Assembly (NCBI RefSeq): GCF_018977255.1
Contig: NW_024704742.1
Coordinates: 32,304,001-32,368,000 of the forward strand
Length of the DNA: 64,000 nucleotides
Direction: 5' to 3'
From: Callorhinchus milii
Taxonomy: Eukaryota
In this document: piece by piece, positions 1-47,225 of the stretch
Position numbering within the stretch: the first letter of the stretch is position 1
Layout of the letters: each line of letters begins with the position of its first letter
The notes under the pieces: generated by a model
Told to the model about the DNA's origin: nothing
What the model saw: only the letters and a program-made list of their open reading frames with translations
Databases searched by the model: none
Made by a program: the position numbers and the translations under genes

Positions 1-96
1 TACCAGGAAGAAAGAAAGAAATATTGAAATAGTATTGACCAGGCATATTGATACTGTATTAATATAATGCTGAGATAGAGCTTGTATTTTAATTAC

Positions 97-998
97 AACA
101 ACAACTTGCACTTATATAGCGCCATCCACTCAGGGTAGAGTCTCAGAGGGCTTGACAGTGACAGAGCCTGACTCCTAGCCAGGGGAGTTGGGTGTGGTGA
201 CCGTAAGCATGGTTGAAAAGGAAAGTTTTCAGTCGGGACTTGGAAAAGAGGAGAAAGGAGGCAAGGTGGAGGGATTTAGGGAGCGTGTTCCAGAGTTTTG
301 GGGACAGTGGCTGAATATGCGACTTGATCAGTAAAGTGGAGGGTGCGAGGGACAAGCAGGAAACCGGTGTCAATCGAGCAGAGGTGCCGGGTAACGGATT
401 CGAGGGTATGGGATTGAAGGGAATTGAACACGAGTGTGAAGATCTTCAAGTCGATCTGTTCGGTGATGGGGAACCAGGGGAGCCTGGCCAAACCTGGTGA
501 GATGGGAGTGCGGAGTTTGATCTGGGTAAGTATTCGGGCAGCAGTTCTGAATGAGCTGGATTTTCTGAATAGTGGAGCAAGGGAGACCGGCGAGTAGTGC
601 ATTTGGGTAATCCAAGCAGGAGGTGGCAATATGCATATAGGGTTTCGGCTACATTTGCAATAATGTACGGTGGGAGGCAGGCAATGTGGCGGAGGTGAAA
701 GAAGATGGTCCTGGCCAGAGTCTGGATGCGGGGAAGGAAGGACAGTTGGGGGTCAAACCGGATGCCGAGATTGCGCACTGGTTCGGTGAATCTGAGGGAT
801 AGCCCAGGGAGGTTGAGGAGTTCAGATCCACAGGAGTCAACATGTTGATGGGAGCCAAGGAGTACGGCTTCCGTCTTGTCCACATCCAGCTGCAGGAAGT
901 TTGCACTCATCCAAGCCCTGATGTCCGCCAGACAAGCTGATAGAACACCGGCGGACCCGGAGTCGATACTGGAGGAGGCAGAGTAGATTTGTGCGTCA
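97..998 (-). mobile_element. L2-clade LINE, 5'-truncated decayed copy (subfamily A), C-terminal RT region to 3' tail
   Basis: Minus-strand ORFs give RAWMSANFLQLDVDKTEA, RNLGIRFDPQLSF, TSCLDYPNALLAGLP, LWNTLP...KSRLKTFLF (L2 ORF2 motifs, frameshifted); 3' end ...GCGCTATATAAGTGCAAG(TTG)n at ~97-125. Confidence 0.93.
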
Positions 999-1042
999 CA
1001 TTGATCAATATTAGTATCTATACTGATATGTGTAACTCTCAG

Positions 1043-1139
1043 TTCTGACGAGGGGTCGTCGACCCGAAACGCTGACTCACGTTCCTTTCTCCATAGATGC
1101 TGCCTGACCTGCTGAGTGTTCCCCAGCTCTCTCTGTTTT
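1043..1139 (+). mobile_element. ~97-bp insertion with minimal type I hammerhead ribozyme motif (Penelope-like/retrozyme-like mini-element), copy 1
   Basis: AGTT-CTGACGA-G-GGGTC(GTC)GACCC-GAAAC-GCT-GACT; perfect 14-bp direct repeat TGTGTAACTCTCAG at 1029-1042 and 1140-1153; homologous to 42526-42624. Confidence 0.8.
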
Positions 1140-1223
1140 TGTGTAACTCTCAGCCTGGTTTTGACCCTTTTAAGCCTGGTGATGGGTTTCCACATGTGTC
1201 AAGACAAAAAAAAAAGCAGTGTC

Positions 1224-1410
1224 CTGCAGTTACCACGTCCTGACAGTAGATGGAGCGACATGTTCTGGTTATAGTTACTCTATCCATCCATTAGGTAGTG
1301 CTGTGGTTCCTCAGTGCAGCTGTAGATGATTCTCCTTTGAGTCCAGTTTCTACCACTGGGTTATTCCCAATTATTTTCTGTATTCTCAGGTACACCGCGA
1401 GGTGGCGCTG
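1224..1410 (+). promoter_or_regulatory. Cluster of up to three co-oriented CTCF-like motifs
   Basis: CCGCGAGGTGGCGC (1395-1408, near consensus); ACAGTAGATGGAGC (1243-1256) with upstream CTGCAGTTACC; CCATTAGGTAGTGC (1288-1301) with upstream TATAGTTACT at the same spacing. Confidence 0.55.
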
Positions 1411-1569
1411 CATCATTTATTATTATCGGGCAGTTTTACAACCTGGAAAATATTCCAAAATAATGTTGTAGTTTCGTCCACTGCTTAATCATATTTGGTC
1501 TCTTATTGCTAACTGTGATTCCTGAAAAGGAAAACGGGGGGTAAATAAAATTAGTATGGATGCATCATT

Positions 1570-1720
1570 GCAGCTCGCTCACTCCGCTCTTTCGAGGCAC
1601 ATTTCCCTCCACACGCACACCCCTCAGGACCCACTTCTCGCTCGGCTGCCCATTCCAGCCCTATGAATCGCTTTGAGATGTCCTGCCGATGTGAAAAGCG
1701 TTATATAAATGTAGATTGCA
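1570..1720 (+). mobile_element. L2 3'-end fragment (subfamily B tail)
   Basis: ATCGCTTTGAGATGTCCTGCCGATGTGAAAAGCGTTATATAAATGTAG tail, matching the L2 copies at 8990 and 12630. Confidence 0.7.
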
Positions 1721-3086
1721 CTGCGTCATTTGGCTTCCAGATGTCTTTTTTGAGGCCGTATCATTCTGGCACAATCAGATTGTACAGAGCTTCCGTCTAA
1801 ATGACCAATACCCACAGACGAATGAGGTTTCCAGAGCTGGAGACACATGAGGCATCACCCCCTCAACTGTTTTGAGTGAGGCAGGAAATGCAACTGGCAT
1901 CCAGGCAGTGCCTTGAAAAACTGCGGAGCAGCCTGGCTCAGGACCCAGACACCTGCTACTGCCACAGAGGATTGACATTCTGTTGCTAAAACCAGTTTAG
2001 CTCCAAGGAATCCCTGCTTACCTCTCCCCCCTCCATGGAGAATAGTCATTGTTGGTCATTTGACACAATTTAGCATTTTTGTAGGTTCATGCTTTCCTGA
2101 GTCCTAAACCTGTTGACTTTAGTCTGTCCCAGTCTCCATCTTTTGCTATGGAAAATCCATTACAGTCATGATGTGAATTTTCCCATCACAAATATGAGAC
2201 TTCTGTGATGATAAGGATTTATGGAAGGTCCCCTGTTGCAGACAGCAAGGCCACAGCTTCTACTTTGATGTCACACATTATGAAGCATTTGTGCAAAAGA
2301 TCGATCAATGTCTCAAGCTCTATAGTCAGGAAGTCTGGAATCTGCTGATGAGGATCTTAAAGACATGACACTTCAATATTTTCTGTGGGATTCAGTTAAC
2401 AAGCTTCAGAACCTCATCTATATCTTCAATACATTGAATTTCAAGTCACTTCAAACCAATATAGCTATACAAAGCCAGAACTCGAGTCAGAATCATGCAG
2501 AACAAGAAGGACTTGTATTCTTATATTGCTGTAACATGTCTCAAAGTCCTTACCCCAATTACTGCAAGTGTTTTTGTAGCCACAGTTTAAAGCTCATCGG
2601 ATTACAAGAGGGCACTTCGCTCCATTTGATCTAATTTTTCCTTAATACCCACTCGAACACCCAAATGCAAGGACTATTATTATTATTATTATTATTATTA
2701 TTAGTGGCTTCAGGATTTCTATCCTAGGGAATAAATGATCCAGGATTCCCACTCCTGATCACTATGCAGTGATTCTTACTGGAAAGTGACTACATGTGGA
2801 TATAATAATAATAATCCTTACATTTGGTACAGCACTTTTCACATTGAGAAGACATCCCGTGCTCACAAGATTTTCTGTAAAGTGTGGTGACTGAGTGTTT
2901 TGTTGGCAATATTAGATAAGGACTGGAATATACTTATGCTTCTGGTAAAAATAGCCCACCCCCCCTCCCTGAATACCCCACTGACATTTACTGTCTGGGG
3001 CTCACACATAAAGGAAGTATACCAGTTTGAGTGAAGTAGTGGAGGATGACCAGTTGCTGTGGATTATACCCTGGAATGAATCAGTG

Positions 3087-12695: not shown

Positions 12696-13016
12696 ATAAT
12701 AATAATAATCCGTGCATTTGATACTGCGCTTTTCACGTCTTCTAGATGTCTAAAAGCATATATAAGCAGACAGAATATACTGTAAAGTGAATTGACTACA
12801 TTTTGTGGGCGAAATACGACAACCATTTGCGCACAGCAGTGTCCCACAAACAGTAGTGGATTGAAGTGACCAATTTATTATTGTTTTTTTTTCTTGAGGG
12901 GTTATGATCAGGCATGTGGAACAAGGAAACTTGCCCAAGGTTTCGCCCTGCCTGGAATCGAACCCAGGTCTCTCGCTTGCGAGGCGAGTGCTCTAACCAC
13001 TGAGCTACAAGACTCC
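12696..13016 (-). mobile_element. Young tRNA-Ala-headed SINE (short variant), full length
   Basis: GGAGTCTTGTAGCTCAGTGGTTAGAGCACTCGCCTCGCAAGCGAGAGACCTGGGTTCGATTCC head, CCTTGGGCAAGT, Deu 3' part, (TTA)n tail. Confidence 0.92.
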
Positions 13017-25918: not shown

Positions 25919-26239
25919 ATAATAATAATAATAATCCTTGCATTTGATATAGCGCTTTTCATGTCGGGAGGACGTCCAAAAGCGCTTCACAGAACACACT
26001 GTAAAGTGAATTGACTGTATATTTGTGGGCGAACGCGGCAGCCAATTGCGCACAGCAATGTCCCACAAACAGTCATAGTTTGAAAATGACCAATTTATTA
26101 TTGTTTTTGCTTTTGGAGAGATTATTATTAGGCTCTGTGTGGAGTAAGGAAACTTGCCCAAGGTTTCGCCCTACCTGGAAGTGAACTCAGGTCTCTCGCT
26201 TGTAAAGCGAATGCTCTAACCACTGAGCTACAGGACTCC
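25919..26239 (-). mobile_element. Young tRNA-Ala-headed SINE (short variant), full length
   Basis: Close to the 37213-37533 and 46623-46947 copies; (TTA)n tail. Confidence 0.93.
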
Positions 26240-36477: not shown

Positions 36478-37590
36478 ATGGCTGAAAGCGCAGCCACCAA
36501 TGGTGGAATGGAGGATTTGAGGGTGATACAGAAGCCCGGAACCAGTCGAGTGGAGGCAGCGGATTGTCAGCTGAGGGGTAAGGAGGTTGGAGAGGTAGGG
36601 ATGTGCCAGGACATCAAGGGATTTGAAATTGAGTGTGAGGATCTTGAAATCGATCGGTTTGGTGATAGGGAGCCAGTGGAGCCTGGCTAGAACTGGTGTG
36701 ATGCGGGTATGGAGTTTACTGTGGGTGGTGGAGTTTGGATCAGCTGGATCCTATGTCTGGTGGAGCTGGGGAGACCGGTAAAGAGGGCATTTAAAAAGTC
36801 GAGTTGGGAGGTTACAAACGCACGGATGAGTGCTTCAGCTGGATCTGGGGTAATGTACGATTGGAAGCGGTCAATGAGGCAGAGCTGGAGGAAGGCGGCA
36901 GGGACTGCATGTAGGGAAGGAAGGACGGCTGCGGGTCGAACCTGACTCCTAGGTCATGCTCTGGTTTGTGTGTCTGAGGGATAGGCCAGGAAGGTTGAGG
37001 AGGTCAAAGCTGGAGGATAGAAGATATTGATGAGAGCTAAGCAGTACCATTTCTGTCTTGTCAACATTGAGTTGCAGGAAGTTTGCACCCATCCAGACCC
37101 TGATGTCTGCCAGACAAGCAGAGAAAACATTGGCGGACCTGGAGTCGCAGCTGGAGGAGAAGTAGATTTGTGTGTCATCCCATATTTGTGGAAGTTTACC
37201 CCATGTTTGCAGATAATCCTTGCAATCTTTGCATTTGATATAGCGCTTTTCATGTCGGGAGGATGTCCCAAAGCGCTTCACAGAACACACTGTAGAGGGA
37301 ATTGACTGCATATTTGTGGGCGAATGCGGCAGCCAATTGCGCACAGCAATGTCCCACAAACAGTCGTAGATTGAAAATGACCAATTTATTATTGTTTTGG
37401 GTTTTTGGAGGAATTATTATTAGGCTCTGTGTGGAGTAAGGAAACTTGCCCAAGGTTTCGCCCTCTGCCTGGAATTGAACCCAGGTCTCTCACTTGCAAA
37501 GCGAGTGTTCTAACCACTGAGCTACAGGACTCCAATGACATCGCCAAGAGGGAGCATTTGGATAAGGAAGAGGAGGGGGCCAAGAAGAAA
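36478..37590 (-). mobile_element. L2 (subfamily A) RT fragment split by a young SINE
   Basis: HGVNFHKY, DDTQIYF, LADIRVWMGANFLQLNVDKTE; continues at 37534-37590 beyond the SINE. Confidence 0.9.
37213..37533 (-). mobile_element. Young tRNA-Ala-headed SINE (short variant) nested in L2
   Basis: Full head to tail; L2 sequence is contiguous on either side with no clear TSD. Confidence 0.93.
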
Positions 37591-39850: not shown

Positions 39851-42525
39851 TACTAGGTTTATAAGAACCAGCTGCTAAATTAAGACTCAATTTAGAATTT
39901 TCTACAATTCTGCGTAATCTTAAATTTTAAGATAAAATAGCTCCGCAGGCTTAGAGTCACTGGAATTTCATGTCTCACAAACTCAGCCTTTGGAAAACTC
40001 ATGTGCTAGCACTCAGAAGTACAACTACATAGACTATTATGCTACCTTCGATGCTTGTGAACAAATAGCTAATGTATAACCATACATTTGAGCACAGAAA
40101 AATAACAACACATTTGATATAACCCTCAGCTCTGGTCCATAACTCTGTCTGTCCAGCACCTTGGGACGTCCTCCCGACGTGAAAGGTGAGCTATACAAAT
40201 GTAATTTTGTTGTTGTTTCTCCTCTCTGGGACACAGCAATGTGTGAGGGGCGCTATATAAATGCAAGTAGTTGTTGTTTCTCATCGGGAAGAAGTACTTT
40301 ACCGTAAATCTTGTGGAGCGCCTCAAAGTCAAGTGTAGTGACTTGGGTTTTGTAGGCAAAATTAACTCCAGTAACATTCAGCTGTAATTCCCTGGAGGTT
40401 ATTCAGTAAGCCAATGACCACACTTAATGACCTCAGCAGGTTCTTTGAAGATTATATTTGCTGATGTGTTGGAAAAAATCAATATTAAAAGACAGGGGGC
40501 CTGAGATCTGCCTCACACGAGCAGAGCTGGGCAATATCTATATTATGAATTCTGTCTGTTCAGGCAGTGGAAGCTATTTAACATCTTCAAGCCATGCGAG
40601 ACCACAAGTTCTTTAAATCTTGTGGCCATTTGTAATCCTTGTACTCAAAAAAAAAAAGGAATCTCACAAATACACAGGGAGATATCACATATATTAAGTC
40701 CTTAATCATAAAATATTATGTTTTAGTAATTTGCCCTTGAAAACCTTGAGTCATTTTGTAGTATTAATATTTAAAATTGTATCTTGACCTGGAAACAATG
40801 TCTTAATTTTTAATAAATAGCGTATGTGTGGAAAACAGCCAGTCCATAGAGAGAAAGGGGAGAGAGAGAGAGCAGCTATGTATTCAATGATTGCAGCTTG
40901 TGCAGGTACTCCAATCTGCTGATTCTGCAGCATAGACACTTACAGCGCAGAAGAAAACCATTTGGTGATCAAGTCTGCACTGGCTTTCAGAGCAAGGTGT
41001 TCATTCAATCCTACTACCTGCCTTGTCCCAATGCTCCTTCAAGCCTCTATCCTTCATACACACGTCTGATTCCCACATTTGTAATCAAGGCTTTATACCC
41101 CCAAAACTGTTCACTCATGTTGGTCATGATGTTGGTCATTTAGCAAGTTAGCTTTGAGTGCTTGTTTTAGATGTGGACAGTTGCTCATCATTGCACTTGG
41201 AATTTAGAAATGTATACTTTTAATAACTTTACTCAGTGTCAGCCTGGCATCCTTCAGATCTTCCCAAGACTTTTTCAAAGAGAGAAGGGAGTTTTTCCCC
41301 AGCCAACGATACTCTAAATATATTAATCATTCTTCATGACTGCTTGTGGGACCTTACATTATTCAAATTGGCTGCCTCACTTGCCTACGAATACATAGTC
41401 ACTGCACTTGGCAGCAATTAATTTCTGAAATGCTTTGAACCATTTCAGCATCATAGGTGCGGTATCCAATGCAAGAATTATTTGTGAAGAGATCCCCTCA
41501 AGATAATGTTACAATAGGAGATGTGAAGCATGTGAACCGGGATCAAAACAAAGGATACCATAGAGTTTCATAGTGCTCCAAGGTGGTGTATTTTAGAATG
41601 GAGTTCCAGCCAGCTGGCTTCACACATTTCTGGTTATTGATAGGTTCCCACTGGGTTTCTTTAATAATGAATATTATTAAAATTGCTGCAAGTTAGGCCA
41701 CATTTTCCATTCTTCCTTGTTCTGGTGTCATTGTGTTGTGCAGTAGCTCCAGATGAGAAGAATTTGAAACCCCATACTTGACCTAGAGCGTGCCAGCGTG
41801 TATGAAAGGTATCGCTCCAGAAACAATTCCCTTTCTCATTTTCCCTTCAAGCTTCAGGGACATGTCTGGCCTTTTTTCATTTCCTCCTACACAGTGAAGC
41901 TGAGAATAGCAGCTCATCAGATTCTGGGTTTGAGCCTGTGTCCTTCTTTTCTGCACCAGGAGCTCTGCTTGCCTGCTGTTAAATCTTGAAACTGCTATTG
42001 TTATATGCAAAATGATAAAAGGCCAGTCGAGCCATCAAGACTGTTCCACAGACCATGTAAAATGCAGCCAATGACCCAATTATCTCTTGGGCAAAGTCAG
42101 TGAAATAAATGTTCCAGATTATTAATCCATTTCCACATCTCCACGGTTCACCCTTACCTTCTTTTCCCAAAGCCAGTTCAAAGCTTCCTTCACACACCAT
42201 TGGAGTTGCTAGCTGTGTCATTCAGCATTGGACCGCTGCTTCACGAGATAACAGCTTAACTAGCGTTAAATCAGTGTCTGTGAAGCTAATCCATGAAGTG
42301 GCACTAAATGAGGTGTTCTGCAGCCAGCAACCCCCCTATTGGCAGCTGCAGAAGGGTTTCAAAATTAAAAATTTTAAGATCTCACAAGACAGCATGACAT
42401 ACATGAGGTTTCTTATAAAAGATATATTTGATATCCTGAGATACTTCATCTGGCTTTATTTTTGGTCAGTCGGGTGATTTCACCGTGCGTTCAGAGTAGT
42501 CAAATCAAACACACCTTAAACTGAG

Positions 42526-42624
42526 TTCTGACCTTCTGACGAAAGGTTATTGACCTGAAATGTTAACTCATTTTCCTCTCTCCATAGATGCTGTTGCTTG
42601 TTCCCAGTGACTTCTGTTTTTAAT
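42526..42624 (+). mobile_element. ~99-bp insertion with minimal type I hammerhead ribozyme motif, copy 2
   Basis: GAGTT...CTGACGA-A-AGGTT(ATT)GACCT-GAAA-TGTT-AACTC then TCTCCATAGATGCTG...CTGTTTTT; perfect 16-bp direct repeat CACACCTTAAACTGAG at 42510-42525 and 42625-42640. Confidence 0.8.
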
Positions 42625-43159
42625 CACACCTTAAACTGAGATGTGGAGCTGCTACGAGGACAATGATTAGAGAAAGTACACATTGCAAATCACACAATCT
42701 GTGAAATGTTAGCAATAATGATGTAAGTAAAAAGGGAGAGGAGACAGCAAATGTGACAATGACAGCGAGAGGTGCTAATTATTCCATTAATTAATGGAAT
42801 AGAAAGAGATTAGGTTAAAGTCTGAGGAAAAGTAGTAACGCAAGTTGTCAGGTGAATACAGTGAATGAAAGTAGTGAGAATGTGGATCATTAAACCAATG
42901 GTGAACTGGCTGTCAAGGTGCAAATGAGTCAACTGTTCATGTGATTGGTATTTTATTAAGTCCTCATGGAGAAAACTAGTTGATTGTGAACCTGGCAGCA
43001 GTAGGAAATGAAATAAAATATTGGATGTGTAATGAAGAAAATATTGTGTGGGGAAAGGGTGGGGGTGGTGGTGAGCGCTTTCATCCAGTAGGTCGTTGTT
43101 ATTACTGGTATCTAGCAATTACATACTCCTTTCCAGACAAAGGAAGTTTAATAATAATT

Positions 43160-46470: not shown

Positions 46471-47225
46471 ATCCTTGCATTTGATACATCTTTCACATCA
46501 GGAGAGTGTGTCAAAACGCTTCACAAGATTTACTGTAAAGTGTAATGAGTGTGCGTTTTGTAAACAAATGGAGTAGCCAAGTTGCACACAGCAATATCCC
46601 ACAAACAGCCATGCAGTGAGTGATAATAATAATAATAATAATAATAATCCTTGCATTTGATATAGCGCTTTTCACGTCGGGAGGACGTCCCAAAGCGCTT
46701 CACAGAACACACTGTAAAGTGAATTGACTGTATATTTGTGGGCGAACGCGGCAGCCAATTGCGCACAGCAATGTCCCACAAACAGTCGTAGATTGAATAT
46801 GACCAATTTATTATTGTTTTTGGTTTTGGAGGGATTATTATTAGGCGTGTGGAGTAAGGAAACTTGCCCAAGGTTTCGCCCTCTGCCTGGAATTGAACTC
46901 AGGTCTCTCGCTTGCAAAGCGAGTGCTCTAACCACTGAGCTACAGGATCAATTCTAATTGGGAGATTGTTGGCCAGGATACCATGAGAAACTCCCTTCTT
47001 TTTTCAAAAGTGCCGTGCAATCTTTAACGTCCGTCTGAACAGGTATAGGGGATCTTGGTTTAACATCTCATCTGAAGGCCATCACCTCTAATAATGCAGT
47101 ACATCTGCAGCAATGCATTGAGGAGTCAGCCTGGACTATGAGCTCAAAGTCTAAATATGGAGCTTGAACTCACAATCTTCTGACTCCGAGGGCAGAGTGC
47201 TACCCACTGAGACAAACTGACACCG
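46471..47225 (-). mobile_element. Old Deu-domain SINE split by a young SINE insertion
   Basis: 3' part 46471-46622; 5' part 46948-47225 with tRNA-like head. Confidence 0.87.
46623..46947 (-). mobile_element. Young tRNA-Ala-headed SINE (short variant), best-preserved copy
   Basis: CpGs intact; tail stem-loop AGCGCTTT-GGG-ACGTC-CTCCC-GACGT-GA-AAAGCGCT at 46664-46699; (TTA)n tail. Confidence 0.95.

Follow-up and report, generated by a model that had tools for sequence, protein, structure and literature searches.

Hammerheads and transposition in Penelope-like elements

Minimal hammerhead ribozymes (min-HHRs), which have neither helix III nor loop 3, were described in the terminal repeats of Penelope-like elements (PLEs) by Cervera and De la Peña (2014, PMC4209133). 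According to the portions of that paper available to us, the motif has several traits that lie outside the search descriptor, i.e., a nucleotide between A9 and G10.1, a G10.1-C11.1 pair, palindromic positions 15.2-16.2, and a short helix I. The same portions report thousands of solo motifs, “probably related to truncated PLEs,” together with pairs on opposite strands, and state that cleavage in vitro was weak and occurred only as dimers (PMC4209133). The transposition mechanism has been studied in PAc, a Poseidon element of the lizard Anolis carolinensis (Frangieh et al. 2024, PMC11167929). In the excerpts at hand, the PLE protein can begin reverse transcription at either of two neighboring internal sites, which are separated by the 30 to 40 bp of the optional tail; cleavage and extension take place on both target strands, and a shorter RNA 5' end leads to a shorter insertion (PMC11167929). 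In the accessible sections of Craig et al. (2021, PMC8557442), a CX2-5CxxC linker marks the Neptune and Nematis clades and is absent from Penelope and Poseidon. Finally, a 2026 preprint (bioRxiv 10.64898/2026.07.22.740005), in its available text, derives animal non-LTR retrozymes from the pLTRs of PLEs.

Minimal hammerheads of PLEs, solo copies, an optional tail, and inverted partners have been in print since 2014-2024, and the object described here is an ordinary one of a known kind: a new PLE family member carrying the published min-HHR. Its value lies in the family, from whose genomic copies one can cleanly read a transposition mechanism that biochemical work has addressed in a single element.

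The insert and its target site duplication

The window, i.e., the whole 64-kb stretch of DNA that was analyzed, contains a 97-nt insert on the plus strand (1043..1139) enclosed by two copies of TGTGTAACTCTCAG, at 1029..1042 and 1140..1153. The repeat was read from the letters, and a repeat search of the window returned it as a 100% identical pair with a spacing of 111; an earlier note on this DNA had described 97 nt between perfect 14-nt direct repeats, and its letters and coordinates proved exact. Genome comparison identifies the insert as a tail-less solo terminal unit of a PLE family, equivalent to unit positions 1-97. The first 3 nt of the right-hand copy are equally assignable to the element: the TGT that opens TGTGTAACTCTCAG matches the family continuation ...TTTTTGTT, and the true duplication in the window therefore measures 11-14 nt. 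The final AG of the left-hand copy also provides the outer two pairs of hammerhead helix I.

A chance pair of 14-mers at such closeness is expected ~0.05 times in 64 kb (arithmetic by hand) and is only mildly improbable; the duplication in the window is credible because family copies also carry boundary repeats. Direct repeats of 7-16 nt flank 10 of 15 distinct solo copies (≥10 nt in 8 of the 15), versus 2 of 15, both of 7 nt, in a displaced control with the downstream window shifted by 310 nt. The 15 copies were picked by eye from 30 loci, with two duplicate loci, nine inverted arrangements, and four long copies omitted. On these counts, the earlier reading of the insert as a retro-copy with a target site duplication (TSD) holds. 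The size given for it holds in part: the 97-nt span is real, but ~100 bp does not define the unit, being set by one of two alternative 3' ends.

A second tail-less solo unit, belonging to an older subfamily, lies at 42525..42624 on the plus strand, between perfect 16-nt copies of CACACCTTAAACTGAG at 42509..42524 and 42625..42640. It is 85% identical to unit positions 1-60, its hammerhead passes the strict form of the descriptor given below with stem II AGGUU/GACCU, and at its 5' junction part of its own head is duplicated over 9 nt. Both solo units in the window start TTCTGAC directly behind a TSD ending in AG.

The unit as the 3' terminus of a Penelope-like element

A search of the insert's own assembly (~0.99 Gb) with the 97 nt produced 926 first-look candidates; 40 were scored, and full-length matches among these were 93-94% identical. 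The sequence is therefore multicopy and, with the TSDs of the 15 solo copies, a family with flanking duplications, as the earlier note's reading required. About half of the family copies extend ~33 nt further, into a “tail” ending ...CAGCATCTGCAGTATTTTGTGTTTT. Summed contig word depth in one run (X1) was in the tens to hundreds over most of the 3'UTR, 10,000-64,000 over the hammerhead, and 147,000-236,000 over the ~35 nt that follow it. In runs of two other organisms, coverage was essentially confined to the last ~90 nt, and the upstream loose-end consensus sequences read ...GAAACGTC|AAC and ...GAAACATT|AAC (agreement, 0.66 and 0.56, respectively). No other part is as abundant or as widely shared as the 3' block of the unit (…CCATAGATGCTGCCTGACCTGCTGAG…; 1083..1139 on the plus strand of the window, recognized by depth and copy comparison), and the hammerhead-like sequence stays adjacent to this block.

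Four of 30 loci (L017, L021, L027, and L029) run upstream into shared sequence, and the upstream walk was continued with two further genome searches, of which the 3'UTR query gave 1,692 and the RT-proximal query 282 first-look candidates. The parent has the order RT (with a YIDD box), ...KPTNSHSYLDYTSSHP..., C-X4-C-X2-C linker, GIY-YIG nuclease, ~310-nt 3'UTR, and unit. Its open reading frame (ORF) fragments read the YIDD box, FPCQxRRCNTC, and ...YIGETKRRLGDRFAEH...LNIDFSHFRP*, and the linker was found as FPCQ(H/C/R)RRCNTC in L033, L065, L069, L080, and L086. Pfam RVT_1 matched one of three fragments (E = 6.9e-5; 23.1 bits against a cutoff of 29.6) and Pfam GIY-YIG one of four (E = 0.01; 16.5 bits against 22.6). 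Scores below the curated cutoffs are expected because the fragments are decayed; all parent copies seen are interrupted by stops or frameshifts. Long copies are 5' truncated at many different points; among those recovered were one partial tandem junction (L029) and no complete copy carrying a 5' pLTR. The unit forms the 3' end of an element with RT and GIY-YIG domains, and the suspicion that the insert would match the terminal repeat of such an autonomous element was borne out, the unit following RT, linker, GIY-YIG, and 3'UTR in that order.

Judged by its RT-EN linker, the parent is Neptune-like. It shares with Neptune, as presented in the accessible sections of PMC8557442, the C-terminal GIY-YIG domain, the C-X4-C-X2-C linker, a hammerhead in the terminal repeat, and an architecture of pLTR, tail, and inverted 5'-truncated neighbor; Nematis also has the linker, in reduced form (PMC8557442), so the clade call rests on one motif.

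The 3' block also contains an ATG, in CCATAGATGCTGCC, whose frame (MLPDLLSF...) stays open through the tail to the element end; it covers unit positions ~55-134, i.e., 1097-1139 in the window and more in copies with a tail, such as L027 (1405-1542, minus strand). This first ATG, ~30 nt behind stem II, may be the start of the PLE ORF where a pLTR precedes a full-length body, because the Anolis ORF starts in the hammerhead region (PMC11167929, as excerpted).

The hammerhead motif

The min-HHR of the window copy occupies 1041..1077 on the plus strand. It consists of the helix I 5' strand AGUU (1041-1044), the CUGACGA box (1045-1051), an extra nucleotide, G1052 (A in the family consensus), stem II GGGTC/GACCC (1053-1057/1061-1065) with loop GTC, the GAAA box (1066-1069), C15.2 and G16.2 (1070-1071), position 16.1 (C1072; U in the family consensus), U17 (1073), and the helix I 3' strand GACU (1074-1077), with the predicted cut between 1073 and 1074. 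The family consensus is CUGACGA-A-GGGUC-GUG-GACCC-GAAA-CG-UU|GACU. In both, the catalytic boxes CUGANGA and GAAA stand in type I order around the stem II hairpin, and the minimal hammerhead of the Penelope kind that had been placed here is confirmed in its CUGACGA box, 5-bp stem II, and GAAA box.

Stem II opens with the G10.1-C11.1 pair (G1053 with C1065 in the window; GGGUC/GACCC of the consensus likewise opens G-C), and the 15.2-16.2 palindrome (C1070-G1071) is part of a loop-less A-C-G-U in the consensus, without helix III. Counting a putative 4-bp helix I (AGUU/GACU), the consensus shows all four of the nondescriptor traits given in the available text of PMC4209133. The “minimal stem III” of C-G-C-U that was read here earlier has to be withdrawn: the family has the loop-less palindrome ACGU, and a helix III would form only between two molecules, as far as the published account of the motif at hand goes. 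At the predicted cut, the consensus reads GAAACGTT|GAC and the window copy GAAACGCT|GAC. The U16.1-H17 cleavage site lacks its U in the window copy (C1072), and T stands at this column in 86 of 93 heads; the earlier note was right that U16.1 is C here, and the window copy is therefore probably dead.

Helix I (AGUU/GACU) has four pairs, one of them G·U, and its AG belongs to the TSD in the window copy; in long copies the 3'UTR supplies these two letters. Its pairing was present in the minimum free energy structure of the monomer of one intact copy, and monomer and homodimer thermodynamic folds did not single out the hammerhead fold. A min-HHR descriptor was composed from the text of PMC4209133 as available, in a strict form (U16.1) and a form with 16.1 free. 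In the 64-kb window it matched once in the strict form and twice with 16.1 free, compared with means of 0.01 and 0.02, respectively, per dinucleotide shuffle (100 shuffles). All core and stem requirements are present in 36 of 93 unique heads (16/56 long, 10/18 inverted, and 10/19 solo).

The earlier note had also looked to Rfam and to stem covariation for support, and neither gave any. Rfam (release 15) found no hammerhead on the window at gathering score, none even at an E value of ≤10 on window positions 900-1300, and none in two copies with an intact motif (L093 and L021). This result is expected because the motif is without helix III, and it counts only against membership of the Rfam families. 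Among 29 aligned long copies there was no stem covariation because the family is too uniform. Almost all variable columns of the family reflect CpG decay, and in a single older copy A-U replaces G10.1-C11.1. Conservation by segment in the 29 long copies is 0.89-0.95 across 3'UTR, core, and tail, with 1.0 at the extra-nucleotide column, and such flat conservation means that the family yields no evidence of selection on the motif. We infer that the hammerhead is a passenger or a processing motif of the parent RNA.

The published min-HHRs (PMC4209133, available portions) and the motif described here are alike in their boxes, the lack of helix III, the unpaired nucleotide, the G10.1-C11.1 pair, a short (here putative) helix I, and the location in a terminal repeat, as well as in their numerous solo motifs and opposite-strand pairs. 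They differ in that stem II has 5 bp here versus 7-8 bp in the Schistosoma mansoni families and in that the family here is nearly uniform, whereas PMC4209133 stresses extreme variability within genomes. In addition, a solo start exactly at helix I is not reported in the portions of that paper at hand.

3' ends, inverted pairs, and 5' junctions

The 3'-terminal units on long copies (24 distinct) end at unit position ~96-107 in 9 cases, at ~128-134 in 14, and elsewhere in 1, which gives the family two possible 3' ends separated by ~33 nt. These match the optional 30- to 40-bp tail between two RT start sites (PMC11167929, as excerpted). A nearby inverted, tail-less partner accompanies 10 of 40 tail-anchored places, and an inverted unit lies upstream of the truncated body at 7 of 30 RT-anchored loci. 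The anatomy of PLE insertions, i.e., 5' truncation, an optional tail, and an adjacent inverted 5'-truncated copy (PMC8557442, accessible sections), is found in this family. The PAc element (PMC11167929, excerpts) provides the closest mechanistic parallel: two RT starts explain the optional tail, both strands are cleaved and extended, the 5' end of the RNA determines how long the insertion is, the hammerhead lies ~110-120 nt upstream of the RT start, and an ATG follows the hammerhead. In contrast to PAc, which as a Penelope/Poseidon element is without the CX2-5CxxC linker (PMC8557442, accessible sections), the element described here has the linker, and the evidence for it is genomic.

The 5' junctions are clustered: in 29 of the 32 unique heads of a first sample (17 solo, 12 inverted, and 3 long, with classes assigned by anchoring on the unit head), they fall at CAG|TTCTGACGA, between about -6 and +2 nt; this sample is small and was chosen by a query that starts at unit position 1 and is therefore silent on absolute class proportions. 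A 5'-neutral, tail-anchored sample of 5 of 39 places comprised three head-to-head pairs and two long copies reaching into the 3'UTR. The unit starts at 151; of the 12 listed strand-switch joints, six fall at 147-154 on one side, and the joints best supported in raw reads are 150<->266 (34 reads) and 153<->192 (18 reads). In the PLE and min-HHR literature, to the extent that it was available, this clustering is the only feature for which we found no explanation.

Two origins of the boundary were considered and rejected. First, hammerhead cleavage would not produce these 5' ends, which lie 31 nt upstream of the predicted cut; the copies span that site, so the hammerhead set neither end of the window copy. 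Second, in Drosophila virilis an intron ends at helix I (PMC4209133, available portions), which prompted the idea that the boundary is a 3' splice site, CCCCAG|TT, but solo copies have no common upstream exon and only TSDs.

RNA data are neutral on the junction. Contigs are unable to show RNA ends, and in the raw reads of one run from organism D (poly(A) single cell; ~27% read), a library type ill suited to the ends of self-cleavage, there was no pileup of RNA starts or ends, including at the unit start and the predicted cut. Raw-read depth follows the abundance of each segment, and both strands are similar, strandedness not being on record. A transcription start site (TSS) at the junction is neither supported nor excluded by these data. 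The parent sequence CCAGTTC fits the initiator pattern YYANWYY. This fit, together with the statement that the Penelope TSS is in the pLTR (PMC8557442, accessible sections), suggests a candidate TSS at the junction.

Origin of the solo units

The insert is very probably a dead retro-copy derived from the final ~100 nt of a Neptune-like PLE, made in the following way. The PLE protein would nick the target, and reverse transcription would begin at the upstream one of two internal start sites on the PLE RNA; use of the upstream site would be the reason for the missing tail of the window copy. Reverse transcription would then run off the 5' end of the PLE RNA, which would lie at, or 2 nt before, hammerhead helix I. 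The likeliest reason for an RNA 5' end at this place would be a transcription start inside the pLTR, at a putative TSS in CAG|UUCUGACGA. A discrete copy of ~100 nt would result or, where both target strands primed, a pair arranged head to head. Internal RT initiation, two-strand priming, and run-off would be expected to leave such traces as the two 3' ends, the head-to-head pairs, and the clustered 5' junctions, respectively. Several observations count against this explanation: Rfam finds no hammerhead in the window copy or in the two intact copies; helix I has 4 bp, including G·U, with two of the pairs (AG) drawn from the flank or the 3'UTR; conservation is flat and folding does not single out the hammerhead; RNA ends do not pile up; the 5'-end samples are small; and both Pfam scores are below the cutoff.

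A broader proposal, which we put forward tentatively and would rate at somewhat under an even chance, is that the solo units of ~100 and ~134 nt and the head-to-head pairs are natural run-off products that mark the 5' end of the PLE RNA at helix I, that the RT start sites and two-strand priming operate in vivo in a Neptune-like element, and that the minimal module is “RNA 5' end - HHR - ~90 nt - RT start sites.” If the run-off reading is true, steps that the available literature reports only in vitro, for the lizard Poseidon, operate in vivo in a distant vertebrate and in a Neptune-like element. Should transcription start at the 5' cluster, the hammerhead would occupy the very 5' tip of the PLE RNA, which would narrow the possible role of the ribozyme.

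The earlier note had proposed a non-autonomous, protein-free retro-unit mobilized in trans. In its full form, this reading would make the units of ~100-130 nt an independent element that has master copies of its own and is transcribed alone, a mini-retrozyme or SINE-like parasite of the PLE machinery. The discrete 5' boundary and the TSDs would suit such an element, as would the many young copies, 0-6% from the consensus, but this low divergence is a selection effect of a best-match sample. Solo, inverted, and PLE-attached units have one common consensus, share polymorphisms (e.g., 30 T/C and 76 T/G in all three), and yielded no substitution that separates solo from PLE-attached units, so that an independent lineage is not supported. 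In vitro, a short RNA module around the hammerhead and the ORF start suffices as a template for the PLE protein (PMC11167929, as excerpted), which favors the independent element, and the derivation of retrozymes from PLE pLTRs (bioRxiv 10.64898/2026.07.22.740005) is a point on the same side. Animal non-LTR retrozymes, as far as the preprint's available text describes them, resemble the units in being protein free, hammerhead bearing, and related to PLE pLTRs and in having dispersed monomeric derivatives; they differ in being defined by tandem arrays and a circular-RNA cycle, whereas the copies here are solo or inverted, flanked by TSDs, fixed in their ends, and span the hammerhead cut site. 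Head-to-tail unit arrays were absent among the 93 heads examined, and one contig joint, from the tail end to unit position ~9 (278->159), is the only hint of a direct tandem. Nor does the unit have the features of a tRNA-type SINE, a tRNA-like head and Pol III boxes: no tRNA or other Rfam family matched it (gathering score; E ≤ 10 on window 900-1300; two copies), and no A or B box was visible on reading the unit, the earlier note having been correct on the latter point. With no discrete RNA ends in the raw reads either, we consider this origin unlikely, and we treat the solo units as products of the RNA and machinery of the autonomous element, the distinction from a separate lineage being in part a matter of wording.

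It is less likely still, and in our judgment improbable, that the insert is an ordinary, randomly 5'-truncated PLE copy, in which reverse transcription dropped off ~100 nt in and the 5' position is meaningless. Heavy 5' truncation is known for PLEs (PMC8557442, accessible sections), long copies of the present family are truncated at many different points, and solo min-HHRs were ascribed to truncated PLEs in the available portions of PMC4209133; random truncation, however, would not pile up junctions near TTCTGACGA in 29 of 32 heads and at three of five tail-anchored loci, place the best-supported strand-switch joints at 150 and 153, or start both solo units of the window at TTCTGAC straight after the TSD.

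That the hammerhead-like boxes are a chance resemblance without ribozyme function in the family is highly improbable: it would agree with the missing Rfam match and covariation, the weak helix I, the poor, dimer-only cleavage of published min-HHRs in vitro (PMC4209133, available portions), and the lack of effect of hammerhead mutations on PLE insertion in vitro (PMC11167929, as excerpted), but the motif is 50-100 times commoner than in shuffles, shows four traits outside the published search descriptor (PMC4209133), lies within the terminal region of the PLE, some 90-125 nt before its two 3' ends, much as Anolis RT starts 111-118 nt into an ORF beginning at stem II (PMC11167929), and has counterparts in the repeats of two other organisms, which keep GAAACGTC|AAC and GAAACATT|AAC at the same place.

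Neighborhood of the locus

Two LINE-type copies with minus-strand sense lie at 95-998 and 3093-~4400 of the window; they are 81-86% identical to each other and show GVPQGSILGP and YMDD-type RT motifs on the reverse strand. The first is 5' truncated at ~998, 30 nt from the locus of the hammerhead insert. Another 5'-truncated LINE of the same family abuts, in antisense, the head of a PLE unit at L096 (G000:C1:9089995-9090320). The LINE family is very abundant, a query that took in its end returning 4,316 first-look candidates, and the two neighborhoods of LINE and PLE unit are probably coincidence for this reason. L096 was considered as a paralogous empty site and rejected, since it is an unrelated truncated LINE whose homology does not resume after the unit. 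No paralogous empty site was found for the window locus, the flanks of which are unique apart from a twin on contig C2.

This twin (L001; G000:C2:21940774-21943870) corresponds to window 1-2640 in the opposite orientation on another contig. Identity is 100% across a stretch of 471 nt or more that takes in the insert, TSDs, and flanks; a position-by-position comparison over 3,097 nt gave 558 mismatches, a count that does not separate an indel shift from the end of the duplication. Either a recent segmental duplication or duplication during assembly may account for the twin.

Near-identical tRNA-like matches of 36.9-55.9 bits occur on the minus strand of the window at 12943-13014, 26166-26237, 37465-37527, and 46883-46945, and others occur in L021 at 1810-1867 and 2606-2677. 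Two of the window matches cover model positions 5-66 only, and acceptor or T-stem pairs are imperfect; the matches are probably heads of a tRNA-derived SINE family, not tRNA genes. At 2661-2827 of the window, a 26-nt inverted repeat (92% complementary, 115 nt apart) surrounds ATT/AAT microsatellite runs, and ATT-type repeats also adjoin PLE units at L017, L018, and L020.
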